Counted from the stretch's first letter, positions 4,198 to 30,301 are shown. The stretch: DNA of 56,178 nt from Gemmatimonadota bacterium (GCA_003697105.1 RFFQ01000160.1:1-56178); one strand, 5' to 3'. Notes: a model not told the origin generated them from the sequence alone. Numbers and translations are program-made.

Positions 4198-4226
4198 TTG
4201 ACAAGATGGGTACAATATGTTATCTT
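4198..4226 (+). promoter_or_regulatory. sigma70-type promoter of the left glucan operon
   Basis: TTGACA(4198-4203)-17bp-TATCTT(4221-4226) with an extended -10 TG. Confidence 0.7.
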
Positions 4227-4249
4227 TGTTCGTAAATCGAACAAAGATA
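4221..4249. promoter_or_regulatory. Palindromic operator, probably bound by the ROK repressor
   Basis: TATCTTTGTTCG-taaat-CGAACAAAGATA is a perfect 12-5-12 inverted repeat overlapping the -10. Its 23-bp core is identical to the reverse complement of 30277-30299. Confidence 0.85.
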
Positions 4250-4313: not shown

Positions 4314-7300
4314 ATGGCTTTCTATCGCGCCGGTCTTGCCACCTATGGGGTGGTATTGGTCTGGCTGATGCTTTTCGGGGGGATCACCACCGCCGCCGCC
4401 CAACCCAACACGGTTACGGTCGTCACAGACAATATGGGGTCTAAGCTTCAAATCGATGGTGCCGATTTTATGGTCATCGGTATGAATTGGGACTATTTCC
4501 CCATCGGCACAAACTATACCTACAGCCTTTGGTCACAACCGGATGATATTATCAGGGATGCCCTCGCCGGGGAAATGTCGCTCCTTAAAGCAATGGGGGT
4601 TAATACCATCCGAATGTATACCGGCGTCCCGCCGCGCTGGGTACAATACATTTATGAGGAATATGGGATTTATACGGTACTCAACCATTCGTTTGGACGG
4701 TATGGTGTCACCATAGATGGCGTCTATACCTACGCCACCAATTATGCCGACCCGCGGACCCGACAATTCCTGTTGGATGAAGTCAAAGCAATGGTCAATG
4801 AGTTCAAGAATACCCCGGGACTATTGATGTGGTTGCTTGGCAATGAAAATAATTACGGTTTGGTGTGGAGTTCTGCCGAAACAGAAGCCCTACCCGAAGG
4901 TGAGCAACAAGCCGCAAAAGCCCGCTATATGTACTCGCTGTTTGGGGAAGCCACCCGCCTGATTCAATCCATAGACACCAACCATCCGGTATCTATGGCA
5001 AACGGCGATATTCAATATCTGGATATTATTGCTGAAGAAGTTCCGACACTGGATATTTTCGGGACGAATGTGTATCGTGGGATTTCGGTAGGGGATCTGT
5101 TTCAAGATGTCAAAGAGAAGATGGGCATACCGGTGATGTTCACCGAATTTGGTTGCGATGCCTATAACGCGAAGGAAATGCGGGAAGATCAGTATCATCA
5201 GGCGCAAATTTTGTTGGGACAATGGCAAGAGATCTACGAGCAATCCTATGGTAAAGGACGGGTGGGCAACGCCATTGGCGGCTTAACCTTTCAATTTAGT
5301 GATGGCTGGTGGAAATATTTACAAGAAGAAAATTTAGATGTACACGATACCCATGCCTCCTGGCCCAACGGGGGGTATCCCTTTGATTATGTGGAAGGTG
5401 AAAATAACATGAACGAGGAATGGTGGGGCATTTGCGCGAAGGGTCCCACCAACGAGCGCGGACTTTACCAACTGTACCCGCGCGCCGCGTATTACGCCTT
5501 AATGCGGGCGTATGAACTTCAGCCGTATGATCCAGAAACAACGCTGGAGACAATCCGGGCTCATTTTGGGGGATTGAACCCGATGGTTGATGTCTTGCGG
5601 GCACGGGGTGATAATGCCGCTTTAACCGCCCAACGCCTCCAAAAGGTGCGGGTCAGCGGGTTGCGGATGGAATTTGAGACCATCAGCAGCGGCGGTAACA
5701 ACGTGAGCACCCCCGATAACCTAATTGCTGGGGAAGAAGGTACTTACCCTGCCTTTAAGGGGTTCGATCATCTGCAATCCTATTACGTGGATGTGGAAGC
5801 GAAGCCCGCAGATAATGTGCGGGCAACCGTTTCCATCAATTATTTGGGGCACGTGCCGGTGAATCCGATAGACGAAATCTTTTACGAAAATCGTGGCCGC
5901 CCGAAAACCGTCTTAACCCCCGATGGACGGAGCGAACTCAGCGACATCGAACGGTTAAAGGTCTATAATGCCAGTGTCTCATGGGAAAGTAAATGGTTTA
6001 ACCTTGATGGATTCTATCGCACCGGACATTATCATTGGGGATATGAAGGTGACTTTTTCGGATTGTACCGGGAAGCGAACTACGGACCCAACATCGATAC
6101 GTACAACGGTGAAGCACCACTTGGTATTGAAGTAACGGGCAAAAAAGCACTTACCGGGCTGAAAATCGCCTACGGGCCCGAACTCTGGTGGGGGGCAAAT
6201 CCGGCAGTATTGATGAAATACCAACGGCGGGTAGGTCCGTTCCAAATGACCGGTATCGTTCAAGAAGATATAGATAATCAGGTGGGTGCGGTTAGTTCCT
6301 TTGCCGTACCGGAACCGACGAATCGCAAGGCAACCCTCCATCTAAAGACGACCCGAGGAATTTTCGGTGTGGAAGTGGGCGGTATTATGTCCGGCCAAAC
6401 CAAAATTGATGAGACATTTCAGGTCATCCGTGGCTCGGAGGGGAATTACACCGTCTATCAAGATCAAATTAAAATGGAAGATACCTTTGGCGGCAAAATT
6501 AAACTCACCGCTACCAAAGGAAAAATAAAATGGTATGCGCAAGGCGCCGCCATGGGTTTGGTTGCCGATGGTGGACCCGATGCGACCCAAACTTACACGG
6601 GCTGGCGGCTCAAAGATAGCGGCAGTGGGAATCAATGGAACATTTTAAGCGGCTTTACGTACAATATCAATAGCGCGTGGCAAGTTGCACCCAATTTCCT
6701 TTGGCAAAAACCGGTTGAAGGACCGATCCCGGCCGGTGTACCGGCGCCCGGCAAACCGCGCAATATTTTGGATGACCCCTTTGCCGTGCGCAGCAACCGT
6801 GAAACGACCGCCGGCGAACTGCTCATCACTTACGACCCCACACCGGGCTCGTGGATGTACGCCTGGGATAGCGATGAAAAAGAAGATGCGAAACTCGCCG
6901 CCAGCGTCGGGTTTGTTTTCCGCCACCAACCTACCACTCAAGATGCCGCTATCGGGATTCTGGGGGATGGTCGTACAACGTTCGCCTTTGATGGCGCACC
7001 GCCGGCGCGGGATGTGTGGGAAGCATACGCTCGGGTCGTCTCTAAATTTCGTCCCGATATGGGTCTGATCGCCAATCTGTATGGCGGAATCGGTGAACCC
7101 AACGGCAATGATGCGCGCGAAATCACGCGATACGGGGTGGATGTCCGGCTCGCACTCCAACACATCAAAATTCAAACCTCCGTGAAGATCGACGATTGGG
7201 GTCCCTATGATTACCACCGCGATTTTAATTTGACGTATCCTTTGCAACTAGAAGCTGATGTCTCGCATGTTCTGGGTAAAATCGATTGGTTTGATGTCCC

Positions 7301-7478
7301 CCAAACCCGCTGGGGAGTCAATGTCAAATGGCGATCACTGGATCGAAACTCTCCCCGCTATTGCCCAGTGGAAGTGGTGAACGATATTGGTGTGCTGGAA
7401 TGCGATCCCACGGCCCCCGGTCAGGATGAGGGCAACGAATGGGAAATCCGAACCTATCTGCATGTGAACGTGCGCTAA
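4314..7478 (+). CDS. Clan GH-A glycoside hydrolase (GH2-TIM/GH158-like) fused to a probable outer-membrane beta-barrel
   Basis: GGAGG RBS and signal peptide (TTAAA-Q). WLLGNENN is the likely acid/base motif and FTEFG the likely nucleophile. The last ~600 aa are alternating hydrophobic/aromatic strands ending EWEIRTYLHVNVR. Confidence 0.7.
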   Translation: MAFYRAGLATYGVVLVWLMLFGGITTAAAQPNTVTVVTDNMGSKLQIDGADFMVIGMNWDYFPIGTNYTYSLWSQPDDIIRDALAGEMSLLKAMGVNTIRMYTGVPPRWVQYIYEEYGIYTVLNHSFGRYGVTIDGVYTYATNYADPRTRQFLLDEVKAMVNEFKNTPGLLMWLLGNENNYGLVWSSAETEALPEGEQQAAKARYMYSLFGEATRLIQSIDTNHPVSMANGDIQYLDIIAEEVPTLDIFGTNVYRGISVGDLFQDVKEKMGIPVMFTEFGCDAYNAKEMREDQYHQAQILLGQWQEIYEQSYGKGRVGNAIGGLTFQFSDGWWKYLQEENLDVHDTHASWPNGGYPFDYVEGENNMNEEWWGICAKGPTNERGLYQLYPRAAYYALMRAYELQPYDPETTLETIRAHFGGLNPMVDVLRARGDNAALTAQRLQKVRVSGLRMEFETISSGGNNVSTPDNLIAGEEGTYPAFKGFDHLQSYYVDVEAKPADNVRATVSINYLGHVPVNPIDEIFYENRGRPKTVLTPDGRSELSDIERLKVYNASVSWESKWFNLDGFYRTGHYHWGYEGDFFGLYREANYGPNIDTYNGEAPLGIEVTGKKALTGLKIAYGPELWWGANPAVLMKYQRRVGPFQMTGIVQEDIDNQVGAVSSFAVPEPTNRKATLHLKTTRGIFGVEVGGIMSGQTKIDETFQVIRGSEGNYTVYQDQIKMEDTFGGKIKLTATKGKIKWYAQGAAMGLVADGGPDATQTYTGWRLKDSGSGNQWNILSGFTYNINSAWQVAPNFLWQKPVEGPIPAGVPAPGKPRNILDDPFAVRSNRETTAGELLITYDPTPGSWMYAWDSDEKEDAKLAASVGFVFRHQPTTQDAAIGILGDGRTTFAFDGAPPARDVWEAYARVVSKFRPDMGLIANLYGGIGEPNGNDAREITRYGVDVRLALQHIKIQTSVKIDDWGPYDYHRDFNLTYPLQLEADVSHVLGKIDWFDVPQTRWGVNVKWRSLDRNSPRYCPVEVVNDIGVLECDPTAPGQDEGNEWEIRTYLHVNVR

Positions 7479-7508: not shown

Positions 7509-9701
7509 ATGAACCGGTCTCAACACATCGAATCAAAAATACGTGAGTTAATCGATCACATGTCCATTGACGAGAAGGTCGGTCAACTGACCCTGATAAC
7601 GAGTGCAGAGGGGCAGATACCCGATTCCTTGCGCGAGGACATCATCGCGGGTCGAATTGGTGGCATATTGAACGAAACCCAGCGGGAGGTCATCCATGAA
7701 CTTCAACGAATTGCCACTGAAGAGAGCCGCCTCGGCATTCCACTGTTGGTCGGGCGGGATGTGATTCACGGCTTCAAAACAATTTTTCCGATCCCGTTAG
7801 GACAAGCGGCAACGTGGAATCCGACTCTTATTGAACAAGCGGCACGGATTAGTGCGCAGGAAGCCGCATCCACCGGTATCAATTGGACATTTGCCCCTAT
7901 GATGGACATCGCGCGAGACCCGCGTTGGGGGCGCATCGCGGAATCCCTCGGAGAAGACCCCTATTTGACGGGCGTTCTCGCCGCTGCAATGATACGGGGT
8001 TTTCAGGGAACAGACCTTTCCGCACCCGACAGTATTGCCGCCTGTGCCAAACATTTTGCCGGGTACGGCGCAAGCGAAAGCGGGCGGGATTACAACACCA
8101 CTAACATCCCAGAAAATGAGCTCCGAAACGTCTATTTACCCCCATTCAAAGCGGCAGTGAATGCCGGTGTCGCCTCAGTGATGACCTCCTTCAGCGATAT
8201 TGACGGCGTACCCGCCACCGCCAACGAAAAACTGCTCCGGCACATCCTGCGGGACGAATGGCAGTATGATGGACTGGTTGTCAGTGATTGGGATGCCATC
8301 TACCAACTGATTGAGCATGGATTGTGCGCCAATAGTAAAGAAGCCGCTTATGAAGCCGCAAACGCCGGCGTTGATATGGAGATGTTTAGCCAAACGTACC
8401 GCGAACACCTGCCCGAATGGGTTGCCGAGGGTAAACTATCTATGGCACAAATCGATGCTCTGGTTGCAAATGTCCTACGGATGAAATTCCGGTTGGGGCT
8501 ATTTGACCAACCTTATACGCGGGCAGAAGATTTCCCACCGGTTGCCAATGCCAGTTTCCGGCAAGCGGCATATCAGACGGCGTTGGAGAGCATCGTTTTG
8601 TTGAAAAATGAAAACCACGTGTTGCCGCTCTCTAAAACAGAGTTGCCCACACTGGCAGTTATGGGACCCTTGGCGGATGATGGTTACGAACAACTCGGTA
8701 CCTGGATTTTTGATGGTGATACCGCCCTCAGCCAAACCCCGTTACAAGCTTTACGAGCGGCAATGAACGGCGAGAATAGCCTCCGCTATGCCCGCGTGAT
8801 GGAAACAACCCGCCAAAATACACGTGAAGGTTTTGCCGGAGCAATCCAACTGGCAAAGCAATCAGAGAAAATCCTGCTTTTTCTCGGCGAGGAGTCGATC
8901 CTTTCCGGCGAGGCACATTGCCGCGCGGACATCCGCCTGCCGGGCAATCAGGAAGAATTAATCCACGAATTGGCGAAACTCGGCAAACCTTTGATCGTCG
9001 TCATCATGGCGGGCAGACCGCTGGCATTGCAAAACGTGATCGACAAGATTGATGCGCTATTGATGGCATGGCATCCGGGTACCATGGCAGGAACGGCAAT
9101 TGCCGATCTGCTACTGGGAAATGCCGCCCCATCCGGCAAACTACCGGTCACTTTTCCGCGAGTAACCGGTCAAATTCCGATCTATTACAATCAAAAAAAT
9201 ACAGGACGTCCGGCAACACCAGAAACCTACATCCACATTGATGAGATTGAACGCGGCGCACCCCAAGTATCACTGGGCAACACCTCATACCATTTTGATG
9301 TGCATTATACACCGCTTTTTCCGTTTGGGTTTGGCTTGTCGTACACCCAGTTTGAGTACCGTCATCTGCAAGTGAATCCATCGGAAATCAAATTAGGAGA
9401 GTCGATTACCATCCGTGCTAACATCCGAAACACTGGTGAGCGGGAAGCTGCGGAAATCGTGCAACTTTATGTGCGCGACCTCGTGGGCAACGTCACCCGT
9501 CCGGTGAAAGAACTCAAAGGATTTCAGAAAATCCGCTTGCAGCCCGGTGAGCAAACAACTGTAACGTTTAACCTGAGTACAGACGAGTTGGCATTTTATA
9601 ACCGTAACATGGTGCGAGTTACCGAACCGGGGGATTTCCATGTCTGGATTGGCAGCAGTTCTGCTACCGGATTGCGGGGGGAGTTTGCCATCATCCCCTG
9701 A
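7509..9701 (+). CDS. GH3 beta-glucosidase, BglX-like, cytoplasmic (no signal peptide)
   Basis: Motifs DVIHG, RDPRWGR, CAKHF and the nucleophile motif VSDW; C-terminal Fn3-like domain (EIVQLY..RPVKELKGF). Confidence 0.93.
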   Translation: MNRSQHIESKIRELIDHMSIDEKVGQLTLITSAEGQIPDSLREDIIAGRIGGILNETQREVIHELQRIATEESRLGIPLLVGRDVIHGFKTIFPIPLGQAATWNPTLIEQAARISAQEAASTGINWTFAPMMDIARDPRWGRIAESLGEDPYLTGVLAAAMIRGFQGTDLSAPDSIAACAKHFAGYGASESGRDYNTTNIPENELRNVYLPPFKAAVNAGVASVMTSFSDIDGVPATANEKLLRHILRDEWQYDGLVVSDWDAIYQLIEHGLCANSKEAAYEAANAGVDMEMFSQTYREHLPEWVAEGKLSMAQIDALVANVLRMKFRLGLFDQPYTRAEDFPPVANASFRQAAYQTALESIVLLKNENHVLPLSKTELPTLAVMGPLADDGYEQLGTWIFDGDTALSQTPLQALRAAMNGENSLRYARVMETTRQNTREGFAGAIQLAKQSEKILLFLGEESILSGEAHCRADIRLPGNQEELIHELAKLGKPLIVVIMAGRPLALQNVIDKIDALLMAWHPGTMAGTAIADLLLGNAAPSGKLPVTFPRVTGQIPIYYNQKNTGRPATPETYIHIDEIERGAPQVSLGNTSYHFDVHYTPLFPFGFGLSYTQFEYRHLQVNPSEIKLGESITIRANIRNTGEREAAEIVQLYVRDLVGNVTRPVKELKGFQKIRLQPGEQTTVTFNLSTDELAFYNRNMVRVTEPGDFHVWIGSSSATGLRGEFAIIP

Positions 9702-9744
9702 AAACCGTATAAACTTTAAGTATTTTCAGTTAGGAGGTATCACA

Positions 9745-10038: not shown

Positions 10039-10057
10039 AAAGAGAAAGAGACAAAAC

Positions 10058-10366: not shown

Positions 10367-10389
10367 ACCCCACGCTTTCCGGTAAAAGA

Positions 10390-13300
10390 TTACCGCAATT
10401 CAATTTCGATGCACTTTACCGAGCGATTCCGAATCTGAGTCACAATGTCTCCATCAAGACAATCTCCTTGAAACGTCTGCACCGAATCCTCTTGATCGAC
10501 CACAATCCATTCTGCCGGAGAAACCGCCCCCATTCCAAACGTATCTTTGCGCGCCGGATTGTGGTACACCACCAAAACAGACCCCAGAAACATAAAGCTG
10601 AACGTATTCGCCGACAATTCAACTTCCTGCCATGTGCCACCCACCTTCAACCGGTGGGTGTGGGATGTTGTGGTGAACAGCCATCCCGGTAGTGCCGGGT
10701 TTAACTTTAGTTGCAATGCGCCATCTGGATGAACCTGAAACGGCGTTTGTCCCACCGCCATGATCATCAAGATATTAATAAACTCTGCCGTGGCGCCACT
10801 TAACCGGGCGACAAACCCGTTACCGTGAATCGACGGGTCCGGGTTGGCACTGCTGACAATAAATGAAGAATTTTCCAGAATACTTCTACCGTAAATTTCA
10901 GGGTTAAAAAACGGTACAAAAACATGCCGGAAATCATGATAAAACGCAGTGTAGAAGCCATTTTTCAGGAGTTCCAACATGTACTTATATTCCATGTGCA
11001 ACCAAATCGACTCATTTTCAAACCAACCCGGTGAAAAGGTGCGGGCACGTCCTATTTCCATAGGTTCCCGCGCTAGGGATTCGTTTACTTTGAACATCTT
11101 TAAATGGCGGTCATACAAGCTACTTTTTCGGAGATTTACAATCAACTTGCGGGAGGTTTCCGTTCCGGGATGGCACCGCAAGAAATGGACAGGACCTTCT
11201 AAGAAGAGGGGCAACGCCCGCGATTCAAATCGCTTTGCCCGAAAACAGGGCAACCCGTTTTCATTGTGCTTGACCTGCCCCTGTTCGTTGGTGATGATCT
11301 CATAATCCACCACCGTATTGATAAAATAAGTCGATAAAACCCCATTTTCCGGGTTCCAGGCGTTATCAATACCATCATTTACGATGCGAAGTGCCGTAAT
11401 CAGATACGCTTTAATATCCGAAATGGGAACGGGTGATTCATGACCCCGGATACCGAACCGGGTGGATTGCCGGTAATCTTCTTTTGCCGTGGTGGCGCGA
11501 TCCCAAAAGTCATAAGGGGATAAATCTTGGCGGAAAAGCGTGTACCACCGGGTCATAAATAGTTCCAATTCTTCAAAAATATAGAATAGCGTATCCGGCG
11601 GAAGCGTATCCAGTGCCGCTTGTAAAAATAGAATGTGCCGTTTGATTTCTAACGTCTCGCTAACACTGGAACCAATCAATCCCGGCAGACCATTAAGCGC
11701 ATCATACCAGTTGGGTTTATCGGCTTCCATCTCCACCCCAATACCGGCGGGGTCGAGCGATGCCAGCTTGTTGGTGATCAGGCAAAGCAGTTTAACAAAC
11801 AAAGTGGTCTGGTACACCTCACCGTTGCCCCAATCAGTACGAACCTGATGCCGCCAAGAGGCACGTTTGTTAAGGAGGGCTTCTTTTTCTTCATCCCACA
11901 CCACCGCGTTAAGTTGCATGGGTTTGCCTTCCCATATCACATATTTATCATCACGGGATTGCACCCGGTGCGCGTTATCGTAAAACGTAAAGGTCTTTTT
12001 TTCAAACAGTAGATGCTGTTTCTTTTCAGGATAGAGCGCCAGATAGTTTTCGATCAAATCCAGATTATACGTCCAGTGATCTGTCCAGAAGCCCTCGCCA
12101 TGTTCCGCATCGTGATGTTTTTGGCAAATACCTAACAGGTCACCCAAGAACATTTCCGGGTCGCCGTTAAGGTGAATCTCCCGCTGATTTAGTTCGATCA
12201 TCAACTCGCCGGGGGTAAACGGTTCTTTCAAGAGGGCACGCACTTCTGCCACCGAACCCGCCTCCAGATAATCCGCCAACACAGCCGCTAACCGGTTTGC
12301 ATCCGGGCAGGTAAACCGGGTTTCTTTAATCACCAACGGGTTAAATCCGTCCAATTGGATCAAATTGACAAACTGTTCCACATTTCCATCACCCACATCA
12401 GGGTTGAAAAAGAGGTCACACCGCCGGTTCTGATTCACATCGCGGAAATTACCATTTCCTTGGGAATAGGGAGTGGGGGTCAGGCGGAAGTCGTTATAGT
12501 CGCGTTCCAGATCGCCATGCTTACGGGAGTACAAATGGAGGGTTGACCGCCCTTGTTTTCCTGTCAGGGTATAGGGAAAACCGCCCCGGAGCACATTATC
12601 CAAAAAATTTTGACGGGCATAGAAGTTCAATGCCGGTTCATTACTAAAAATAAAGTTATGTTGGGTTAATTCATCGATCAGTTCCTGATTTTCAACAAGC
12701 TTAGTGTCAATGTAAGCGGGTTTGGTGATCCGCGGAATCCGCTCATTTAAGGCGGCTACGGAATGGGCATGTCCAATGATGGAGGTGAACGTATAGCAGG
12801 AATGGGGGTCAATCGTGGTCTGAAAAAGCCCCATCGCACATGGTAACCGGTTTTCCAGCATTTGCCCGGCGAGCAATTCGTCACCTGCGCCCATCAAAAA
12901 CCGTTCAGGATAATCGTAATTTCCCCGCCGTCCAAAAATATGTTCGGGGTCAACAAGGGTGGGTGCAATCTGCCCATCAACCTCAAATCCGACATAAAAA
13001 TTGCCTTTTTGGATGCGCACCACATCCGGGCGGTCTGCCGGTTCCACTTTGCCCTTAAAAAACGGCACGTGATGGTCTAGGTTGGTAACCTCTACAAATG
13101 CCTCTACCAAGCGCCGCATATTTTTCAACCCGAAATTGTCGATCCCGTACGGGATAATCAAGGGTAACCCATCCAGCCCTTCCACTGCTATTTTGGACGC
13201 TGTGATATTCTCAATCCGGAGCCGGCGCACCAGACCGGCATATTCCGCATTGGGGATGGTGAAATACTCCACGGTCATGTTCAAACCAAGTGTGGGGTTC

Positions 13301-13674
13301 TTTTCTTCTAGGATTACATGAGCCGGTTGGATGGTCAGCCGTTGGGTGCGCTGCATGTGTTTATCTCTAAGATGATCCTGAAACGGCTCATAAAACTGGT
13401 TCTGAACTTTGAGAAAGGTACGAAATCCCTGTGACGGTACCAGTTGATATGCCCAATTTGCCGGCAGAAACTCCATGATGGGGTGGTGTTTGCCTTCAAT
13501 GCCCATACTGCACACACATTGTCCCCGGTTCACATAAAACACCCACATGGGAATACCACTCTTACCCGCCACACCGGGGAAAAAGCTGGCAAATAATTTA
13601 GCGGAATTATAATTTTCGATGACAACGTCACCGGTGCTGGTAAGATGATAGGATGGAGTTTTTGGATACATCAT
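10390..13674 (-). CDS. Beta-1,3-glucan phosphorylase, GH161-like
   Basis: 1094 aa, no signal peptide. Motifs GIPMWVFYVNRGQ, RKHGDLERDYN, QGNGNFRDVNQNRR, WYDALNGLPG and PGWFENESIWLHMEYKY match GH161 as I recall them, rather than GH149 or GH94. Confidence 0.8.
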   Translation of the reverse strand: MMYPKTPSYHLTSTGDVVIENYNSAKLFASFFPGVAGKSGIPMWVFYVNRGQCVCSMGIEGKHHPIMEFLPANWAYQLVPSQGFRTFLKVQNQFYEPFQDHLRDKHMQRTQRLTIQPAHVILEEKNPTLGLNMTVEYFTIPNAEYAGLVRRLRIENITASKIAVEGLDGLPLIIPYGIDNFGLKNMRRLVEAFVEVTNLDHHVPFFKGKVEPADRPDVVRIQKGNFYVGFEVDGQIAPTLVDPEHIFGRRGNYDYPERFLMGAGDELLAGQMLENRLPCAMGLFQTTIDPHSCYTFTSIIGHAHSVAALNERIPRITKPAYIDTKLVENQELIDELTQHNFIFSNEPALNFYARQNFLDNVLRGGFPYTLTGKQGRSTLHLYSRKHGDLERDYNDFRLTPTPYSQGNGNFRDVNQNRRCDLFFNPDVGDGNVEQFVNLIQLDGFNPLVIKETRFTCPDANRLAAVLADYLEAGSVAEVRALLKEPFTPGELMIELNQREIHLNGDPEMFLGDLLGICQKHHDAEHGEGFWTDHWTYNLDLIENYLALYPEKKQHLLFEKKTFTFYDNAHRVQSRDDKYVIWEGKPMQLNAVVWDEEKEALLNKRASWRHQVRTDWGNGEVYQTTLFVKLLCLITNKLASLDPAGIGVEMEADKPNWYDALNGLPGLIGSSVSETLEIKRHILFLQAALDTLPPDTLFYIFEELELFMTRWYTLFRQDLSPYDFWDRATTAKEDYRQSTRFGIRGHESPVPISDIKAYLITALRIVNDGIDNAWNPENGVLSTYFINTVVDYEIITNEQGQVKHNENGLPCFRAKRFESRALPLFLEGPVHFLRCHPGTETSRKLIVNLRKSSLYDRHLKMFKVNESLAREPMEIGRARTFSPGWFENESIWLHMEYKYMLELLKNGFYTAFYHDFRHVFVPFFNPEIYGRSILENSSFIVSSANPDPSIHGNGFVARLSGATAEFINILMIMAVGQTPFQVHPDGALQLKLNPALPGWLFTTTSHTHRLKVGGTWQEVELSANTFSFMFLGSVLVVYHNPARKDTFGMGAVSPAEWIVVDQEDSVQTFQGDCLDGDIVTQIRNRSVKCIEIELR

Positions 13675-13692: not shown

Positions 13693-14679
13693 TTAGCCGC
13701 CGTGTAAAAAGCAACGGACAAAGTGGTTATCCGCTAATTTTGTTAGGGGAGGCATCTGCTCCCGGCATTGGGGGGTGGTATGTGGGCAACGACTGGCAAA
13801 GGGACAGCCCCGGCTTTCCGGCCGCCACGTGGGAATCTCTTTTTTTTCGACTTCAGGTAGAGAAATACGCGAACCCCGTTTATGCGGGTCGGGCACTGCC
13901 GAAAGGAGTAATTGCGTATAGGGATGTTGGGGGTTTGAGGTTACATCACGGCTGTCACCGGTTTCTACCATGTGACCCACGTACATCACCGCAATCTCCT
14001 CCGTGAAGTAGCGGGCAGTGGCAATATCATGCGTAATGTACAAAAAGGCGGTATTAAAGTCCTCTTTCATCGCTTCCATCAAATTCAAAATACCCAGCCG
14101 GATGGAAACATCTAGGGCGGAGGTCGGTTCATCCGCCAAAACCACTTCCGTACCGAGCGCCAATGTTTTGCCGATACACACCCGTTGGCGCTGCCCGCCA
14201 CTCAGTTGGTAGGCATATTTTTTTGCCGTTTGCTCTACCGGAATTAGACCGACTTTTTCCAACACAGAATAGACCTTATCCTCCAGTTCGGATTTATTTT
14301 GAACAATCTTGTGGATTTGCAACGGGCGGGCAATATGATGAAAAACCGTATGCACCGGATTCAAAGCGCCGTACGGGTCTTGAAAAATCATTTGCACCTT
14401 CCGGCGGTATGCCATGACGGACGCTTTGTCCGTAAATGTGGCAATATCATTCCCTTGGAACAAAATCTCACCGGCAGTTCGCGGATATTGCAAGGAGATC
14501 ACCCGTGCAGAAGTGCTTTTGCCGCTCCCGGATTCCCCCACGATCCCTAACGCACGCCCCGGATAAAGATTGAATGAGACATCGTTCACCGCCCGCATGT
14601 ACTGCTTCGTAAAAATGCCCTGTTTGGTGGGGAAGTCCTTGACCAAATGGCGAACTTCCATGATCGGCTGAAGGCTCAT
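13693..14679 (-). CDS. Opp/Dpp-family ABC transporter ATPase (OppF-like)
   Basis: Walker A GESGSGKS, signature LSGGQRQR, Walker B LADEP and a C-terminal Cys cluster. The start overlaps the upstream stop. Confidence 0.93.
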   Translation of the reverse strand: MSLQPIMEVRHLVKDFPTKQGIFTKQYMRAVNDVSFNLYPGRALGIVGESGSGKSTSARVISLQYPRTAGEILFQGNDIATFTDKASVMAYRRKVQMIFQDPYGALNPVHTVFHHIARPLQIHKIVQNKSELEDKVYSVLEKVGLIPVEQTAKKYAYQLSGGQRQRVCIGKTLALGTEVVLADEPTSALDVSIRLGILNLMEAMKEDFNTAFLYITHDIATARYFTEEIAVMYVGHMVETGDSRDVTSNPQHPYTQLLLSAVPDPHKRGSRISLPEVEKKEIPTWRPESRGCPFASRCPHTTPQCREQMPPLTKLADNHFVRCFLHGG

Positions 14680-15674
14680 CACTCCGCTCCTCCTTCAGGT
14701 GTGGGGAACAGGTGGCACGCCACCTGCCGTCCGGGTTCAATCTCGATTAAGGGTGGGTTTTCTCGTTTACAAATATCCATACATGCCTCACAGCGAGGGG
14801 CAAAATAGCAACCGGGCGGCGGGTCCCACAGGTTCACCGGAAAACCGGAAATCCCGCTTAGTACCTTTTTCTCCCCGCTTAATAACGGAAACGAGTTGAT
14901 CAGCCCATTTGTGTACGGATGTTTGGGATCAAGGATGACCTGTTCAGATGTCGCCAATTCCACAATTCGCCCCCCATACATGATCGCGATCCGGTCGGAA
15001 ATTTCGCCCAACAGACTCAAATCATGGGTAATCAGGAGAATTGTAAAGCCAAATTGGTGTTTCAGTTCCTCCAGTTTTGCCATGATTTCCCGCTCAACCA
15101 CCACATCGAGCGCGGTCGTCGGCTCATCCATAATAATCATTTGGGGGTCGAGTGCCAACGCAATGGCAATCACGACCCGTTGGCGCATCCCGCCACTAAA
15201 TTGATGGGGATAATCGTTCATCCGATCCGGGCTGATACCGACTCGTTCCAGAAGGTTTGCCGCTTGTGCCACGGCGTCTGCTTTGGAAATATTCCGGTGC
15301 GCTAAAATGACATCGCACATTTGGTCGCGGATGGAGACCACCGGATTGAGGCAGTTCATCGCGCTTTGAAACACCACGCTAATATCGTTCCAGCGGATAC
15401 GACGCAAGCGCTCCTCGTCCATGCAGAGAATATCCTCACCATTAAATATCACCTCGCCCTCCGGAATCAATGCCGGCGGCTTGTGCAGACGCAAAATGGA
15501 AAACGCCAGCGTACTTTTGCCACAGCCGGATTCACCCGCCAGACCCAGGGTTTCCCCCCGCTTGACCGTCAAATTGACCCGGTCAACCGCTCGGACGGGT
15601 TTTTTCTCCGTCAAATAGTCCACGCAAAGATTGCGAATTTCCAAGATAGTACCGGTGGATGATCCTTGATTCAC
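14679..15674 (-). CDS. Opp/Dpp-family ABC transporter ATPase (OppD-like)
   Basis: [26 protein letters not shown] and a C-terminal Cys cluster. Confidence 0.93.
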
Positions 15675-16819
15675 GCCAACTCCTTATCATTTCTTGCTTT
15701 TGCTAACCGTTTTTGTTGAATCTCGTTATACCGTTTTTTCCATAAACCCATATTACCGCCGCCTTTTAATTGCGGGTTGCTGACATAATCCATACCCATG
15801 TTCAGCAGAGCCAACCCCCCGCCAAAGATCGAGATGGTAATGGCAGGTGCTAACATCTCCCACCATGCCCCGACGATCAAAGCGGAGTTGTTTTGTGCCC
15901 ACAGAAGCATTGTACCCCATGTTACGACGCTGGGGTCACCTAAACCGATGAATTCCAAACCGGCTTCCGCCAGTACCGCATATAGCGTTGTCCCCACAAA
16001 CTGACCGGCAATCAGGTTGATAACATTGGGCACCATTTCCACAACAATAATGCGCCATTTGGATTCACCAATTGCTTCGGCGGCGGTAATAAACTCCCGT
16101 TTTCGGATGGATAAGGTTTGAGAACGGAGTACCCGGGCGCCCCACGCCCATGAGGTCACACCAATGATGATGGCAATGGAATGCGGTCCGGCTTCACCTA
16201 AAAATGCCGCCAGCACTAAAATCAGCGGTAAATTCGGGATAACCAACACCACGTTCATCATAAACACCAGCAATTCATCCACTTTACCGCCCATATATGC
16301 CGCCGTCACACCCATTAACACCGCGATCACGGTTCCGATCAGCCCCGCACCAAAGCCAACCAGTAGAGAAATCCGCGCCCCATAAATCAATTGGCTCAAC
16401 ACATCCTGACCGGCGCGAGTTGTACCCAGCCAATGCCGGCGGCTGGGAGGCTCATGCCCCGGATCGTGACGGGAATAGCCCGCAATCCGTTTTTGCAGTG
16501 GTAGCGGTATTTCGGTACCGGTTTGGGTCTCAATGGTGCGGAGGAACTCATGCTTATCTTCAAATCCGTGCCCTTTTAAGGCGGCTAAAGTGGCTTCTAT
16601 TTCGGCAGACATTCCCTCTATTCCGGCTAATTTTTCGAGGGTTTCATCTGTAATTTTGTATTTAATTGGGTCGCGTTCCAGCGCACCGTACGGCGCAATG
16701 AGCGGAGCAAACACCGCCAGCAATACAAACGTGCCGATAATAGTCGCACCGATCACCGCCGGCGAGTTGCCCTTAAAAAAGCGGATTATACTTTCGAGAA
16801 ATCGACTCATTTCAATCAC
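15671..16819 (-). CDS. Opp/Dpp-family ABC permease (OppC-like) with an inserted ~70-aa domain
   Basis: HWLGT..GQDVLSQLIYGARISL and EAA loop EFITAAEAIGES; extra hydrophilic segment after TM1. Confidence 0.9.
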   Translation of the reverse strand: MIEMSRFLESIIRFFKGNSPAVIGATIIGTFVLLAVFAPLIAPYGALERDPIKYKITDETLEKLAGIEGMSAEIEATLAALKGHGFEDKHEFLRTIETQTGTEIPLPLQKRIAGYSRHDPGHEPPSRRHWLGTTRAGQDVLSQLIYGARISLLVGFGAGLIGTVIAVLMGVTAAYMGGKVDELLVFMMNVVLVIPNLPLILVLAAFLGEAGPHSIAIIIGVTSWAWGARVLRSQTLSIRKREFITAAEAIGESKWRIIVVEMVPNVINLIAGQFVGTTLYAVLAEAGLEFIGLGDPSVVTWGTMLLWAQNNSALIVGAWWEMLAPAITISIFGGGLALLNMGMDYVSNPQLKGGGNMGLWKKRYNEIQQKRLAKARNDKELA

Positions 16820-16827
16820 TCATTATT

Positions 16828-17802
16828 TCATTGACGAAGCCGCGGATCCAGCCAGAGATAAAGCAAATCCGCCACAAAATTAGCTACCAGAACACAGATC
16901 ACGATGATCAGCATCAGTGCCTGAATTAATGGGTAATCACGCACCATCACGCCTTTGAGCATCAGGTTGCCTAAACCCGGGTAATTAAAAACAATCTCCA
17001 CAAAAATTGCCCCACCGACGATAAAGGCAATCGCCATGGATACCGCGGTGATAACCGGTAAAATTGCATTGCGAGCGGCATACTGGAACATCACCCGCCG
17101 CCGGCTCAGACCCTTGCCAACCGCCATACGGATGTAATCCTCACTTAACAAATGGATCATGCTGTTCCGCATGTGAAACAGCCAGCCGCCAATGCTGATC
17201 AGCACCATCGATAAAATCGGCAGAATAGCGTGATAGAGTACATTACCGATAAAGGTTAGATTCCAGCCGGGGTCAAGGTCGGGGTCATAGCCATAAGAGA
17301 TGGGAAACCATTCCAGCACCAGCCCGAAGATGTAAAAAAGAATCATCGCCATGACGACTGCCGGAAACGCACCCAGCACTAAAAATGTCGGGGATGCCAG
17401 TTTATCAAACCAACCCCCTTGATGGTAGGCGGCATAAATGCCCATCAAACTCCCAATAAGAATACTGATAAGGGTGGCAGAGCCTGAAATAAACAGCGTC
17501 CATGGGAGGGCATAGCCGATCACCTCCGAAACCGGCGTAGGGAAAAACAGAACACTTGGACCCAAATCCCACGTGAAAACACTCTTTAGATACGCGCCAT
17601 ATTGCACGTACCAGGGTCCCTCCACAAAGCCATATTGCGCCTTCAACGCCGGTAACTGCTCCGGCGTAATCTTGCCCTGTGCGGCGGCAAACATGATCTC
17701 AAACGGGTCACCGGGCATTAGGCGCGGTAGGGCAAAATTCACGGTAATTGCCACTAAAAACGCCGCCAGATAAAACAGAAACCGTCGAACTAAAAAACCC
17801 AT
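16828..17802 (-). CDS. Opp/Dpp-family ABC permease (OppB-like)
   Basis: PRLMPGDP, EDYIRMAVGKGL, EIVFNYPGLG, RDYPLIQ and C-terminal LDPR. Confidence 0.93.
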   Translation of the reverse strand: MGFLVRRFLFYLAAFLVAITVNFALPRLMPGDPFEIMFAAAQGKITPEQLPALKAQYGFVEGPWYVQYGAYLKSVFTWDLGPSVLFFPTPVSEVIGYALPWTLFISGSATLISILIGSLMGIYAAYHQGGWFDKLASPTFLVLGAFPAVVMAMILFYIFGLVLEWFPISYGYDPDLDPGWNLTFIGNVLYHAILPILSMVLISIGGWLFHMRNSMIHLLSEDYIRMAVGKGLSRRRVMFQYAARNAILPVITAVSMAIAFIVGGAIFVEIVFNYPGLGNLMLKGVMVRDYPLIQALMLIIVICVLVANFVADLLYLWLDPRLRQ

Positions 17803-17813
17803 AGCATACCCCT

Positions 17814-19460
17814 TTAGCGCAGATGTAAGTGGTTGATTAAAATAACCCGTTCCCCGGCATCATAAAAATTAGGATTGATGTACGGATTATCTTCGGTGGG
17901 CCAACCGACAAACCGCTTTGTGGTGTACTGGTACCATGTCGGATTGGAGAACACCGGAATAATCATCAAATTTTGGGCGACAACTTCCTGCAACTGACTA
18001 ATGATTCGTCGTTGTTCTGCTTCATCCCGAACGGTGACGTACCGGTCTAGCAGACTATCGACAGCGGCAGCGCTCCAACCATGCTTGGCTTCAAAAACAC
18101 CGGCTTTATCAATGTTTTGAGAGTGCAAAAGCGGGGCGTAAAAGCGATACGGCGTGACACCGGTCATCCCATACAACATCCCCACCTCAAATTCACGATT
18201 ATTCCAATTGCTAACATACTGCCCCCATTCAACCGTCTTGGTTTTCGCATTAACCCCCACGTATTTGAGGTCTTCCGTGATCATCTGCACGCTTTGAATC
18301 CAATCCGTCCACCCACTGACAACCATGATCGAGAACTCAATCGGTGACCCATCTTTATTTTCACGGATGCCGTCGCCATCGGAATCGATATACCCCGCGT
18401 CGTCCAGTATCTGTTTCGCTTTTTCGGGGTTGTATTCATTCAACCAATCATATTTTTGATTAACGTCATCATCATACCACGCCGCAAAAAAATCACCGAT
18501 CCCCGTGATGTGCGGGTTGAGTGAAGCATAGCCGTATGTTGCCAGCTCGACTACGCTTTCCCGATCCAGTGCCAGACTAAATGCCTGCCGGAAGTTCAGG
18601 TCGTCCAGCGGTGGCTTATCCAGATTGAGGTTTAAGAAAATCGGTGATCCCGCCGGATACCAATAGCGATTGTGCTCGGGGTCTTTTGCCACGAACGTTT
18701 TCTCAATATCGGGGATAAAATTAGAACCCCAGTCAATTTCCCCGCGGATCAAAGCGGCTTGTACTTGCGCGTTACTTTGGTATTGGCGCAGCCGGACACA
18801 ATCGATATACGGCTTGCCCTCTTCCCAATAATAGGGGTTACGACAGACGGTGATTTGATACGGGCTGAAACGTTTCACCTCCGTAAAGGGTCCCGATCCC
18901 ACCGGATGTTTATTGGTAAATAATTCGGGATTTTCAACATTCTGCCAGATGTGCTTTGGGACAATGTATTGGCTAGGGATCGACCATTCAACCGTTGTAT
19001 TCACTTGCGTCAGATGAAACCGAACCGTGCGGTGATCCACTTTTTCTACCCATTTGATTTTCGGAGTCTCTCCCACGAACAGTCCCGCCACATCAACTGC
19101 CGGGAATTTTTTCGCCATCTCGAAGGTAAAAATCACGTCATCAGCGGTCAGCGGCGTACCATCCGACCAACGCAGACCCTCCCGTAAATAATAAGTGATA
19201 GAGAGGAGGTCATCCGAATACTCAAAATGTTCGGCTAGGCGGTACTCGATGCGATTTTGGCGGAAATTATAGACGACCAGAGGCTCATAAATAAACCCCG
19301 GCGCCGGACTGCGGTTTACATTTTGGGTATAGGGATTGAAATTTTCAATAAAAGCGATGGTAAGAACGGGACCATCGATGGTTCCACCCCGTTTTTGCGC
19401 AAAGAGAGGTATGGAAAACATCAGTAACACGATGAGGACGGCGATAAGGGTATGTTTCAT
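17814..19460 (-). CDS. ABC solute-binding protein family 5, probably binding oligosaccharides
   Basis: Signal peptide; NFNPY..FIYEPL, LREGLRWSDGTPLTADDVIFTF, PVGSGPF and SGWTDW resemble chitin/cello-oligosaccharide-binding family-5 SBPs; glycosidase context. Confidence 0.88.
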   Translation of the reverse strand: MKHTLIAVLIVLLMFSIPLFAQKRGGTIDGPVLTIAFIENFNPYTQNVNRSPAPGFIYEPLVVYNFRQNRIEYRLAEHFEYSDDLLSITYYLREGLRWSDGTPLTADDVIFTFEMAKKFPAVDVAGLFVGETPKIKWVEKVDHRTVRFHLTQVNTTVEWSIPSQYIVPKHIWQNVENPELFTNKHPVGSGPFTEVKRFSPYQITVCRNPYYWEEGKPYIDCVRLRQYQSNAQVQAALIRGEIDWGSNFIPDIEKTFVAKDPEHNRYWYPAGSPIFLNLNLDKPPLDDLNFRQAFSLALDRESVVELATYGYASLNPHITGIGDFFAAWYDDDVNQKYDWLNEYNPEKAKQILDDAGYIDSDGDGIRENKDGSPIEFSIMVVSGWTDWIQSVQMITEDLKYVGVNAKTKTVEWGQYVSNWNNREFEVGMLYGMTGVTPYRFYAPLLHSQNIDKAGVFEAKHGWSAAAVDSLLDRYVTVRDEAEQRRIISQLQEVVAQNLMIIPVFSNPTWYQYTTKRFVGWPTEDNPYINPNFYDAGERVILINHLHLR

Positions 19461-19477: not shown

Positions 19478-20554
19478 TTATTTCAAAAAATGGACGACGG
19501 AGGGTTTGGGGGTACGGTCAACATAGAAAAGACCCCAATGTTTTTCAACTTCATTGGCGGGGGAGCTATCCCCGCCACCTTTCCACGGTTCATCAAACAC
19601 TTCAAACCAAAATGTGGTGATCTGGTTTCCCTCGATCCATTGGGTTAAGTCCCGTAAAAACTGCTCCTGTCTTGCCAAACTGACTTCACCTTTGATCAAC
19701 GTCCCCTGCTGCCCCTCCCCGATTTTGCTGGCGTTGTAGTCGGTTGCCCAACCGGTTTCGCCGAGGACGATCACCTTATTTGGATGCCGGGCTTGAATAT
19801 CATGGTACACGGAATCCGTCCAACTGATGGCATTTGCCAGCCGCTGACCATTCCACAGGGCGTAGGCGTGCATCACAATAAAATCAATTTCGTCTGCCAC
19901 GGTCTGGCTTTCTGGTTTATTCCAAAAGTTGTAATCATCGGCGGTCGTCACTGGCTGGGATACATACCAACGAACCGCACGGATATATTGGATCAAGGTT
20001 TTTTGCGCGAGTCGGTGTCCCGACCAAAAGACTTGCGTTTCGTTGCCGGCATTCACCGCGATGACAATATCTTTAAACTGATTTGCCAGAGCGATCCCGC
20101 GGGCTACCTGTGCCAGATTCTGTTGCTGGTAAAGGGGATTATCGTTTTCGGTGGTGAGCCAGATACCAAGCATCACTTTTAGGGGGAGGTCATTCTTGCG
20201 GATAACCTCCAAAATGCGCTCCGAGTCATCATCAGCCCCGTAAATCCGGATCAGATTCCAATGCTGGGTGATAATGTTCAAATCTTCGAGGATTTCCGCT
20301 TCAGAGGGTCCCCGGATGCCCGGTGCTTGACCTGCCCGAAAGGGTCCATAGGAGACGGCGTTACCAATCCATTTGCCATCAACGTTGGGTTGAAATTCAC
20401 GAGGATGGAACGGGTCTGCTTTCGGTATTGAGGCGATTGTTTGGCGTAGTTCATCAACCGAAGGGGTCTGCGCCGTAATGGGAGGCACATTTACACAAGC
20501 GATCCATACCCCCCCGTACAACGCCACAATCACCCATAACATGGGACGGTTCAT
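19478..20554 (-). CDS. GH17 beta-1,3-glucanase/transglycosylase, exported (possible lipobox IAC)
   Basis: Motifs VSYGPFR, LIRIYG, AGNE, LGETGWAT, FEVFDEPWK and EKHWGLF. Confidence 0.88.
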   Translation of the reverse strand: MNRPMLWVIVALYGGVWIACVNVPPITAQTPSVDELRQTIASIPKADPFHPREFQPNVDGKWIGNAVSYGPFRAGQAPGIRGPSEAEILEDLNIITQHWNLIRIYGADDDSERILEVIRKNDLPLKVMLGIWLTTENDNPLYQQQNLAQVARGIALANQFKDIVIAVNAGNETQVFWSGHRLAQKTLIQYIRAVRWYVSQPVTTADDYNFWNKPESQTVADEIDFIVMHAYALWNGQRLANAISWTDSVYHDIQARHPNKVIVLGETGWATDYNASKIGEGQQGTLIKGEVSLARQEQFLRDLTQWIEGNQITTFWFEVFDEPWKGGGDSSPANEVEKHWGLFYVDRTPKPSVVHFLK

Positions 20555-23054: not shown

Positions 23055-23124
23055 GGTAACCTCCTGACAAGTTATAAGTAAAAAAATTGTGAATGAATTA
23101 GCGTACCGGTAACAGCGGCACAAA

Positions 23125-24582
23125 TTACGTTGGGGTCACCCCTAATTTTCCGCGCCGGCGTTCCAGTTCCATGCGAATCTCATGTGCTTTTTCTTCAGTG
23201 ATGGGAAAGACATACACTGCCCAAATAGCGAGAGCAGAGGTGATAATCGGAATCACCACATCAAAAAAACGGAGTAAAAAGATGGTTTGTTCCGTTTGAT
23301 TGCCATTCAAATTGACATCAAAACCCGTTGCGTTCAGCAGAAACCCCCCTGCCGCCAATGCGAGAGACATCCCCAGTTTAACAACCCACCAAAAGATAGA
23401 ACCAAACATTCCTTCCCGCCGCTCATGGGTTTCCAATTCATCCAAATCCACCACATCCGCCACCATAGAAGGCATCAAGGTAAACAAGCCCCCTAATCCG
23501 AATGCCAGCAATGGCGTAGGCAAAATCACTAACCACGGAACGGCAGGATTGTAACACACCCATTTTAGGGCATACCCCGCAATGGAGAGTCCAGTAGAAA
23601 CAAAAAAGGCAGGGCGTTTCCGGATTTTGGTTGCCATCCACGTGACCAGCACCACCACCACAAACGTCGAAACCGCACCGACAGACCCCGCATATCCCAC
23701 ATATTCCGCACCGCGTGTTTGATCGCCACCAAACACGTAATAGATGATCACATAGGATTGAAAAGAGGAGATCATAATAAATCCGTTGAAAACCAAAAAG
23801 GTGGCAACACACAATAGTAAAAAGGGTTTGGATTTGAGCACCAACGCAAACCCTTTGAAAAAGCTGAGGATGGTCTTCCAGAAGGGCTCCGTTGGCTTAT
23901 CGGCAACAGGGTTTGCCTCTACTCCCGGATTGAAGCGCTCCCGTAGAAAGATTGCCGGTAAAATCCCGATGCCAATGGTGACAATGCCAATAATAATCGC
24001 CAATCCTGCCGCGCCGGCAATTTGATCTTTGAAAAACCCTTCGTAGGTCATGATCCATAAAAACCAGGGTGCAATTACGTAAGCAAGCTGTCCAATAAAA
24101 TTTTGCACGCCCATCAGGCGGGTACGTTCGTGATAATCTGGGGTGAGTTCATAACCGAGGGCAACCCACGGGGTGGCAAAAACGGTGTACGCCAGATAAA
24201 ACAGGATGGAACCAATGAGGAAAAAGACAAAATAGAAGGTTTCGGTTTTACCGCGTGGTAACTGCCACAGCAGGGCAAAAATAATTCCGGCGGCAATCGC
24301 TCCCCCCAAAATATAAGGGCGGCGGCGTCCCCACCGGGTGCGGGTGTGATCCGAAATGTAGCCCATCATCGGATCGGTGAGTGCATCCGTAAACCGGGGC
24401 AACGCGCCCAGCAATCCAACCAGCGCGGGGTTCATTCCCAATCCTAAGTTTAGGACAATCATCATTCCCCCACTCGCCGCCGCCAGTAGATTGTTGACAA
24501 ATGCGCCTAACCCGTAAATAACTTTCTGGATAAATGGTATGCGATCCTCAGGTGCAGTTTCGTAGTGTTGTTGTGAACTCAT
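23125..24582 (-). CDS. MFS sugar:cation symporter, GPH (MelB-like) family
   Basis: ATG 24582 after AAGGA; DALTDPMMGYISDHTRTRWGRRRPY, ELTPDYHERTRL and RREG; about 12 TM segments. Confidence 0.92.
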   Translation of the reverse strand: MSSQQHYETAPEDRIPFIQKVIYGLGAFVNNLLAAASGGMMIVLNLGLGMNPALVGLLGALPRFTDALTDPMMGYISDHTRTRWGRRRPYILGGAIAAGIIFALLWQLPRGKTETFYFVFFLIGSILFYLAYTVFATPWVALGYELTPDYHERTRLMGVQNFIGQLAYVIAPWFLWIMTYEGFFKDQIAGAAGLAIIIGIVTIGIGILPAIFLRERFNPGVEANPVADKPTEPFWKTILSFFKGFALVLKSKPFLLLCVATFLVFNGFIMISSFQSYVIIYYVFGGDQTRGAEYVGYAGSVGAVSTFVVVVLVTWMATKIRKRPAFFVSTGLSIAGYALKWVCYNPAVPWLVILPTPLLAFGLGGLFTLMPSMVADVVDLDELETHERREGMFGSIFWWVVKLGMSLALAAGGFLLNATGFDVNLNGNQTEQTIFLLRFFDVVIPIITSALAIWAVYVFPITEEKAHEIRMELERRRGKLGVTPT

Positions 24583-24619
24583 ATACAATTCCTTGTATTT
24601 TTGATAGAAATCCGACCCT

Positions 24620-30274: not shown

Positions 30275-30301
30275 TACTTTGTTCGATTTACGAACAAAGT
30301 A
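30275..30301. promoter_or_regulatory. Palindromic operator, second copy
   Basis: TACTTTGTTCG-attta-CGAACAAAGTA is a perfect 11-5-11 inverted repeat. Confidence 0.85.

Follow-up and report, generated by a model that had tools for sequence, protein, structure and literature searches.

The stretch of DNA considered here, 56,178 nucleotides from a Gemmatimonadota bacterium (GCA_003697105.1 RFFQ01000160.1:1-56178) and called the window throughout, carries two divergent beta-glucan operons, and the first gene of one of them is the subject of this account. It is an open reading frame (ORF) on the plus strand, 4314-7478, open throughout, with a product of 1054 amino acids (aa) in which a catalytic domain of the glycoside hydrolase (GH) type is joined through a short helical linker to a predicted outer-membrane beta-barrel (Table 1). 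The leader is a hydrophobic stretch closing in AAA-Q, by eye a type I signal peptide. Among 142 relatives of 950-1400 aa that start with Met, 140 show no lipobox-like match and the matches in the remaining two look spurious; the N-terminus of the fusion protein is predicted to be non-lipidated. Conservation is lowest of the mature protein in the linker (0.37), against 0.63 in the enzyme domain and 0.49 in the barrel. Past residue ~290 neither Pfam nor NCBIfam gives a match to the fusion protein.

The barrel is seen most clearly in an AlphaFold model of residues 415-1054, built with a 59-row alignment (predicted local distance difference test, pLDDT, 92.1; predicted template modelling score, pTM, 0.87): one helix of ~20 residues is followed by 26 strands of 6-19 residues, laid out in hairpins. 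Foldseek gives at least 411 matches to this model at E <=1e-3, the listed ones being outer-membrane barrels without exception (BtuB, MOMP, PfeA, FimD and LptD among them), with TM-scores of ~0.3. When the model was compared with 48,161 chains by VIA-align, 49 of 50 rows were outer-membrane barrels, with AlgE at the top (Z 17.0; root-mean-square deviation 4.1, 264 residues aligned) ahead of MOMP (16.2), Occ/OprD (15 to 16) and maltoporin (13.6). Only barrels of larger size match along the full range (30-640), at Z 10.5-12.8: MtrB, TonB-dependent receptors and the FimD/PapC ushers. A soluble beta-sandwich or propeller for residues 445-1054 is rejected by the confident model and by the membrane barrels that fill the listed Foldseek matches. 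AlphaFold, Foldseek and VIA-align agree here with the sequence-only reading, which had proposed a beta-barrel with an attached hydrolase, and all seven amphipathic strands quoted there lie in modelled strands (S2, S3, S4, S16, S17, S22 and S26). The models support a beta-barrel of the outer-membrane type in the C-terminal 610 residues, joined to a hydrolase of clan GH-A.

The details of the modelled barrel are those of an outer-membrane protein. On one side its strands are connected by nine turns of 2-3 residues (2 in all but one) plus one of 4; on the opposite side are long, aromatic-rich, conserved loops of 18-36 residues. This alternation of short turns and long loops is the usual outer-membrane pattern, and by it the barrel would begin and end at the periplasmic face, where the short turns are. 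The hairpin S18/S19 has a highly conserved 21-residue connection on the 'turn' side and might be an in-folded element, so the strand count is given as about 24-26. Hydrophobicity alternates within the 26 strands, with a mean even/odd difference of 2.40 against 1.62 +/- 0.23 for shuffled strands (maximum 2.43 in 1000 within-strand shuffles). Sequence searches of Pfam, NCBIfam and the PDB assign the barrel part to no family, and Pfam finds no Plug, TonB_dep_Rec or CarboxypepD_reg in it at E up to 1.

The enzyme domain carries GNEN at residues 176-179 and TEFG at 277-280, and E178 and E278 are kept in at least 90% of 41 aligned full-length relatives. Pfam matches the Glyco_hydro_2_C TIM barrel to residues 83-288 (E 1e-8, 35.2 bits against a cut-off of 21); GH72 (Pfam) and pieces of the LacZ TIM barrel (NCBIfam) appear only below threshold. 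The TIM barrel starts at residue 34, right behind the signal peptide, and the N-terminal sugar-binding and immunoglobulin (Ig)-like domains of GH2 are missing. Searched as a single sequence against solved structures, the protein comes closest to 6pal (BuGH158, 5.6e-5) and LacZ TIM barrels; against 9oro it gives 0.014. A profile of the 41 relatives run against the PDB gives 6pal at 1e-9 and 9oro (GH158(Pro)) at 1.3e-8, over ~190 of 367 residues, with the G-N-E and T-E-F/W-G motifs in register with the catalytic Glu motifs of both. With the full-length AlphaFold model (pLDDT 87.3, pTM 0.75), Foldseek puts GH158 first (9p26, E 2e-15; 6pal), a GH157 laminarinase next and then GH2, GH35 and GH5. 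The GH-A motifs named in the sequence-only reading are present and aligned with those of GH158.

Solved GH158 enzymes have an Ig-like domain behind the TIM barrel, according to PMC13195107. In the model of the fusion protein, residue 400 is followed by two helices and then the membrane barrel, with no Ig-like domain. Since the closest folds are GH158 and GH157 and the motifs align, but the Ig-like domain is missing, the catalytic domain is best described, from sequence and model, as GH158-like rather than as an established GH158 member. The loop past the acid/base motif, residues 181-200 (window ~4854-4913), has the conserved consensus W-x-S-x-E-I-E-D-L-P-x-G-E despite a low pLDDT of 54-66; it may serve for contacts or be a mobile part of the active site.

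Relatives are numerous and widespread. A word-indexed search gives 5347 proteins at E <=1e-3 among 8000 scored candidates; the best 120 are mostly 1036-1105 aa long and 62-100% identical across the barrel part, and PF26410 is listed on two of them. Among 50% clusters, an exhaustive search gives 477 representatives, 144 at <=1e-30, many of them fragments. Of 601 stretches picked out by pattern, with one genome taken per species, 597 prove to encode a relative, which amounts to at least 597 species genomes; in the window's own phylum two of three species genomes have one. The best 80 relatives belong to Ignavibacteria, Gemmatimonadota, Krumholzibacteriota, Eisenbacteria, Calditrichota, Rhodothermales, Flavobacteriaceae, Cyclobacteriaceae, Saprospiraceae and others, and their cultured carriers include Algoriphagus (A. 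kandeliae), Mangrovimonas (M. spongiae), Sediminicola (S. luteus) and Flavilitoribacter (F. nigricans). In the source databases the relatives are called 'glycosidase', 'hypothetical protein' or 'GH2 TIM barrel-domain containing'. The ~1050-aa proteins of flavobacterial clusters mentioned in the sequence-only reading do occur, named only 'glycosidase' or GH2 TIM, in Flavobacterium, Algoriphagus, Mangrovimonas, Sediminicola and others.

The barrel also exists without the enzyme. Several cluster representatives of ~590 aa consist of a signal peptide leading directly into the first strand, and end in Y-x-F. A metagenome scan with the barrel-only alignment confirmed 205 of 274 stretches, from which 80 loci were kept, many of them with short flanks. 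The barrel frame is 575-624 aa in 18 of these loci, of intermediate length in 2 and longer than 900 aa in 37, where it is a divergent GH-A plus barrel fusion; in the other 23 it is interrupted by the contig end. A final Phe is found in all 55 complete relatives of the metagenome set, including all 18 barrel-only forms. The barrel-only N-termini, where printed, are mostly a hydrophobic leader. In three loci (L083, L087 and L094) the barrel-only gene lies among genes for LacI or glucokinase, a family-5 solute-binding protein (SBP) with an Opp-type ATP-binding cassette (ABC) importer and a GH16 enzyme, joined in L094 by GH1, and no space is left for an upstream enzyme domain. The Opp-type importer accompanies barrel-only genes as it does the fusion gene of the window. 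Searched by tblastn with the window's proteins, the 80 metagenome loci show GH16 in 25, MFS_2 in 18, SBP in 13 and GH17 in 11. For the barrel-only lineage the Atlas hints at Pseudomonadota, the phylum being known for 4 of 57 members. For DUF6029 (PF19494) the Atlas feature score is 0.94; against membership, Pfam gives no match, and hhalign gives a probability of 2% for the barrel-only profile against the DUF6029 protein of the window's source genome.

Comparison of fused and barrel-only forms shows where the conservation lies. The strands are 23% identical between the two, whereas the connectors S5-S6, S7-S8, S15-S16, S18-S19 and S23-S24 keep their length and are 45-60% identical. Conserved aromatic-rich loops of this kind suit a constriction or a sugar-binding path. 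Its occurrence by itself in beta-glucan loci makes the barrel a module of its own, tied to beta-glucan use, as would be expected of a substrate channel rather than of something that serves only to anchor.

Directly behind the divergent fusions lies a lipoprotein of 209-263 aa (L109:11866-12525, L117:11805-12431, L132:7914-8612, L148:11727-12437, L156:11524-12312) that belongs to no Pfam family and is 33-41% identical from one locus to another. It may be a partner or plug of the divergent-fusion barrel; tblastn at E 1e-3 finds no homologue of it in the window.

A separate set of 80 related loci, drawn from species genomes (43 with at least 5 kb on both sides), gives the genomic setting of the full fusion. 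In tblastn with the window's proteins, GH16 is found in 53 of them, the lipoprotein in 45, MFS_2 in 31, GH17 in 28, and GH3 and the ROK regulator in 20 each. Seven loci were scanned ORF by ORF; their usual order is regulator, fusion, a lipoprotein of at least ~640 aa, a GH16 lipoprotein, a weakly GH161-like protein of ~1150 aa, GH17 and GH30. The lipoprotein gene stands directly behind the fusion in L003, L049, L079, L031, L075 and L080, and its orthologue heads the opposite operon in the window. A TonB, SusC or SusD domain occurs in none of the 77 ORFs scanned in the seven loci. Of the 116 ORFs listed, 30 belong to three high-GC loci with unreliable ORF calls and were set aside, as were the fusion ORF of each of the seven loci and two ORFs of L057, of which one lies at the edge of the locus and the other overlaps the beginning of the fusion frame from the opposite strand. 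In the remaining 73 loci the search for SusC covered the first 330 residues of ORFs of at least 650 aa, 146 pieces from 60 loci. In several Gemmatimonadota loci and in Flavilitoribacter, CBM9 genes lie just upstream of the fusion (L031:1709-3925, L028:7372-, L024:6256-, L032:7285-, L035:6420-), and where enough of the ORF was scanned they also carry DUF5916, a family whose kinship with the barrel is unsupported (hhalign probability 0.7%).

In the window itself the fusion gene is, as had been claimed, the first behind an operator: the palindrome before it is real and has a second copy in front of the minus-strand operon. The two share 25 bases, with the core TTTGTTCG, 5 nt, CGAACAAA, and stand in front of the two divergent beta-glucan operons; the second copy is the only further one in the window, and shuffled sequences give none. 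The palindromes are probably the site bound by the ROK regulator encoded in the minus-strand operon. The second hexamer of the promoter match overlaps the operator, in a region with 11 promoter-type matches against 8.7 expected. The minus-strand operon runs from the 1162-aa lipoprotein through ROK, GH16, MFS_2, the 818-aa paralogue, GH17 and the SBP with four ABC genes to GH161.

Table 1. Features of the fusion gene and of the surrounding locus in the window (positions counted from its first nucleotide; T9SS, type IX secretion system; MFS, major facilitator superfamily)
Feature	Position	Strand	Remark
Sigma-70-like promoter match, TTGACA-17 nt-TATCTT	4198..4226	+	consensus match only
Operator, perfect 12+5+12 palindrome	4221..4249	.	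~65 nt before start codon
Signal peptide	4314..4400	+	residues 1-29; cleavage after AAA, placed by eye
Clan GH-A (alpha/beta)8 catalytic domain, GH158/GH157-like	4413..5513	+	residues 34-400; acid/base E178, nucleophile E278
Linker	5514..5645	+	residues 401-444; helices 411-419 and 423-441 (DSSP, both AlphaFold models)
Outer-membrane beta-barrel (predicted)	5646..7475	+	residues 445-1054; ~24-26 strands
GH3 beta-glucosidase	7509..9701	+	30 nt downstream of fusion gene
GH161 beta-1,3-glucan phosphorylase, cytoplasmic	10390..13674	-	PDB 9qqk 'GH161A' 4.4e-221
Opp-type ABC importer: 2 ATPases, 2 permeases, family-5 SBP	13693..19460	-	
GH17 with N-terminal signal	19478..20554	-	
818-aa protein with T9SS C-terminal sorting domain	20667..23123	-	
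MFS_2 sugar transporter	23125..24696	-	
GH16 lipoprotein	24620..25426	-	lipobox Cys, then acidic residues
ROK-family regulator with winged helix	25423..26703	-	candidate palindrome binder
1162-aa lipoprotein (lipobox)	26719..30207	-	52% identity to the 644-aa L003 protein over its full length
Second operator copy, 2 mismatches	30276..30300	.	~70 nt upstream of minus-strand operon

The GH3 enzyme has no N-terminal hydrophobic stretch and is therefore probably cytoplasmic. The Opp-type 'peptide' importer together with a cytoplasmic GH161 implies that oligosaccharides, beyond glucose, reach the cytoplasm. The repeats of the 818-aa T9SS protein are 59-65% identical to the lipoprotein found behind the fusion gene elsewhere, and the 1162-aa lipoprotein, being orthologous to that gene, is a candidate laminarin-binding surface protein. 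The two proteins of the window are built from common modules of ~170 residues that belong to no Pfam family; the source genome encodes T9SS-sorted proteins. Between the converging GH3 and GH161 genes are ~690 bases (9702-10389) with short overlapping ORFs at 9640-10038 and 10031-10366 and no Pfam match. Among the scanned ORFs of at least 150 aa in the window none has a TonB, Plug, SusD or porin domain, and the fusion is, as first proposed, the only barrel candidate of the locus.

The domain anatomy, the barrel fold, the intact catalytic residues, the co-regulation by palindrome, the content of the locus and the barrel-only homologues are the ground for the reading favoured here: the fusion is a TonB-independent entry channel for beta-glucan, coupled to an endo-glucanase, to which a probability of about 0.6 is given. 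The barrel is probably the gate for laminarin in the source bacterium and in hundreds of other species. Transport, its substrate and the order of cutting and passage would be as follows. After Sec export, the C-terminal 610 residues would insert into the outer membrane as a barrel of ~24-26 strands, in which the conserved aromatic-rich loops would form a sugar-selective passage that requires neither a TonB plug nor SusD. At the surface three proteins would hold and nick laminarin: the GH16 lipoprotein, the 1162-aa binder and the paralogue of this binder that is secreted by the T9SS. Chains or oligosaccharides would then traverse the barrel, and the tethered GH158-like domain would cut them at one mouth, so that the gradient stays inward; GH17, the MFS and Opp-type ABC importers, the GH161 phosphorylase and GH3 would finish the pathway.

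The idea that the barrel may replace SusC, put forward in the sequence-only reading, fits the source genome and fits the wider family less well. In that genome, which is 96.85% complete, SusD gives no match and SusC none above the cut-off; 22 weaker matches of the TonB-receptor type lie outside the locus. A SusC-like gene lies near the fusion in 3 of the 80 related loci (L060, L066 and L072, all flavobacterial), and the barrel is accordingly not always the sole candidate gate. Several further observations weigh against the favoured reading. The order of signal peptide, passenger, helix and barrel is also that of autotransporters, and AlgE, the highest-scoring of the fold matches, serves as a pore for export. 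The subfamily to which the window's protein belongs has no aromatic end: the final residue is Met in 70 of 114 members and Arg in the window's own protein. A barrel of this size could be fully plugged. Lastly, 13 of the 73 loci searched for SusC have no ORF of at least 650 aa.

On which side of the membrane the enzyme sits matters to this mechanism: the cleave-and-import order of the sequence-only reading would require an enzyme outside the cell. Judged from the turn lengths, the first strand starts on the periplasmic side, and the enzyme would thus be periplasmic unless the linker helix crosses the lumen. By a slight preference, the enzyme is placed in the periplasm, where the first strand begins on the short-turn side and no export step would be needed; the N-terminal domains of other large barrels are periplasmic too. 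The chance is close to even that it is instead exposed at the surface, the linker helix passing through the lumen. A 19-residue helix immediately precedes strand 1, as in autotransporters, and those GH158 enzymes of Bacteroides that have been characterised reportedly work at the surface of the cell (PMC7157763). Loops of greater length in the fused than in the barrel-only proteins belong mainly to the long-loop side (S1-S2, S3-S4, S9-S10, S25-S26), a hint against the periplasmic preference, in that the enzyme might dock on that side. Loop pLDDT compared between the two models shows nothing clear about the enzyme side. Folded as separate chains, enzyme and barrel score 0.47 against 0.00 for the best control, classed as 'weak support': of 157 solved complexes 116 attain the mark, as do 2 of 215 mismatches, and at <=0.60 it is attained by only 18 of the 157 solved complexes and by both of these mismatches. 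These runs have at least 85% contact agreement and a partner pLDDT of at least 83.

The alternative that survives best, unlikely as it is, takes the barrel for an anchor only, a self-export and display device with the helix in its lumen, so that laminarinase is tethered at the surface and sugars enter by another way. The earlier reading had already allowed for an autotransporter-like anchor, and this is kept as a rival, weakened by the barrel-only homologues in beta-glucan loci. Signal peptide, globular passenger, ~19-residue helix and a first strand from the short-turn side make up the type Va layout, and the reported surface action of Bacteroides GH158, the longer loops of the fused form and the SusC-like genes in three loci are all compatible with an anchor. 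An anchor does not predict barrels that lack a passenger, and such barrels occur in 18 of the 80 metagenome loci, with genes for GH16 and importers as neighbours. In number of strands the barrel, moreover, is about double any known type V barrel (12-16), Pfam finds no Autotransporter match at E up to 1, the loops outconserve the strands and are kept in the barrel-only forms as well, and most loci offer no other outer-membrane route.

Quite unlikely is a docking platform, in which a closed or plugged scaffold would group the enzyme with the neighbouring surface lipoproteins and transport nothing. Such a scaffold would fit the lipoprotein genes directly behind the fusion in the six loci named above and the conserved 209-263-aa lipoprotein behind divergent fusions, and large barrels with lipoprotein plugs are known (LptD/LptE). 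It would leave the loci with no entry route, and in L083, L087 and L094 the barrel-only gene has a regulator, an importer and GH16 as neighbours, with no lipoprotein partner seen. Least probable by far is an export pore that secretes a beta-glucan exopolysaccharide like AlgE, PgaA or BcsC while the fused hydrolase trims it in the periplasm: AlgE does lead the VIA-align matches, in which PelB, PgaA-type and BcsC barrels are also listed, but the scanned ORFs of the locus include no glycosyltransferase or synthase, and the partners here and in related loci are catabolic or importing (GH3, GH16, GH17, GH161, ABC, MFS), in the window under an operator of the sugar-repressor type.

The favoured entry channel has a bolder form, which is put forward only tentatively: a third, TonB-independent route for polysaccharides across the outer membrane, beside small-sugar porins and SusC/D, in which the tethered glucanase acts as a ratchet at the exit. 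An incoming beta-1,3-glucan chain would be cut there, perhaps processively, so that it cannot slide back, and uptake would be driven by hydrolysis instead of the proton-motive force. Laminarin is among the most abundant glycans of the sea, and its uptake is explained by SusC/D in Bacteroidota and poorly elsewhere. If the ratchet were real, it would be a major unrecognised route for laminarin carbon, in at least 597 species genomes from Bacteroidota, Ignavibacteria, Gemmatimonadota, Calditrichota, Krumholzibacteriota and others. Members of the family stand at the head of laminarin loci in hundreds of species, for most of which no SusC/D or TonB receptor is seen nearby, and predictors of polysaccharide utilisation loci (PULs) keyed on SusC/D would miss such loci. 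A barrel that serves as the gate would bring with it an energy-independent uptake mechanism and a marker gene for laminarin consumers outside Bacteroidota.

Among known systems, the enzyme domain is closest to GH158 (BuGH158, 6pal; GH158(Pro), 9oro/9p25/9p26) and GH157 (LaGH157, 9fz9/9g5g), the top Foldseek matches at E 2e-15 to 1e-12. They share with the fusion a clan GH-A fold, aligned catalytic motifs and a place in beta-1,3-glucan loci, but identity is only ~15-17%. Where GH158 has its Ig-like domain, the fusion has two helices and a 610-residue membrane barrel (predicted), and its N-terminus appears non-lipidated.

For the barrel, the sugar-specific channels are the functional model: LamB (1mpr), ScrY (1a0s), chitoporin (5mdo) and OprD/Occ (3sy9, 3t24) align at Z 11-16 over ~220-285 residues. 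Like the proposed barrel, they are TonB-independent, substrate-selective and encoded in catabolic operons, and the barrel-only homologues hold the same operon position as sugar porins. They differ from it in having 16-18 strands against ~24-26, in the lack of any Pfam sequence similarity between them, and in that the barrel of the window is fused to an enzyme.

The position of the fusion recalls SusC/SusD, which likewise heads glycan operons beside surface lipoproteins and a surface GH16. In the flavobacterial loci L079 and L080 the fusion follows a Y_Y_Y-type regulator, matching the place of SusC/D in the F. agariphila PUL. In that laminarin PUL, as described in bioRxiv 10.64898/2026.01.10.698779, SusC/D comes after BguR and GH158 is among the enzymes. 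The likeness is confined to the barrel wall (Z ~12): the fusion has neither plug nor SusD partner and presumably no energy coupling.

Enzyme passengers on type V autotransporters are represented by EstA and PlpD; in type Va the C-terminal beta-domain has 12 strands. Signal peptide, globular enzyme, helix and C-terminal barrel follow one another in these proteins as in the fusion, whose barrel is roughly twice as large, matches no family and has barrel-only relatives.

In the literature searched, by titles and the starts of abstracts apart from the passages cited, no fusion of a glycoside hydrolase with an outer-membrane barrel is described for laminarin use. The nearest published idea is the Formosa GH17-MFS fusion in laminarin utilisation (Unfried et al. 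2018, PMC6246565), likewise a transporter joined to a carbohydrate-active enzyme, although its transporter is alpha-helical and lies in the inner membrane; the porin mentioned in that paper is an unrelated one of a nitrogen cluster. MFS_2 N-termini are also seen on ORFs of at least 650 aa in four of the related loci (L015:1409-4729, L023:14882-16948, L030:15023-17086, L039:15008-17098), which are probably MFS-glycosidase fusions of the Formosa kind. If the barrel is the gate for laminarin, the protein encoded at 4314-7478 would be the outer-membrane counterpart of the GH17-MFS fusion.

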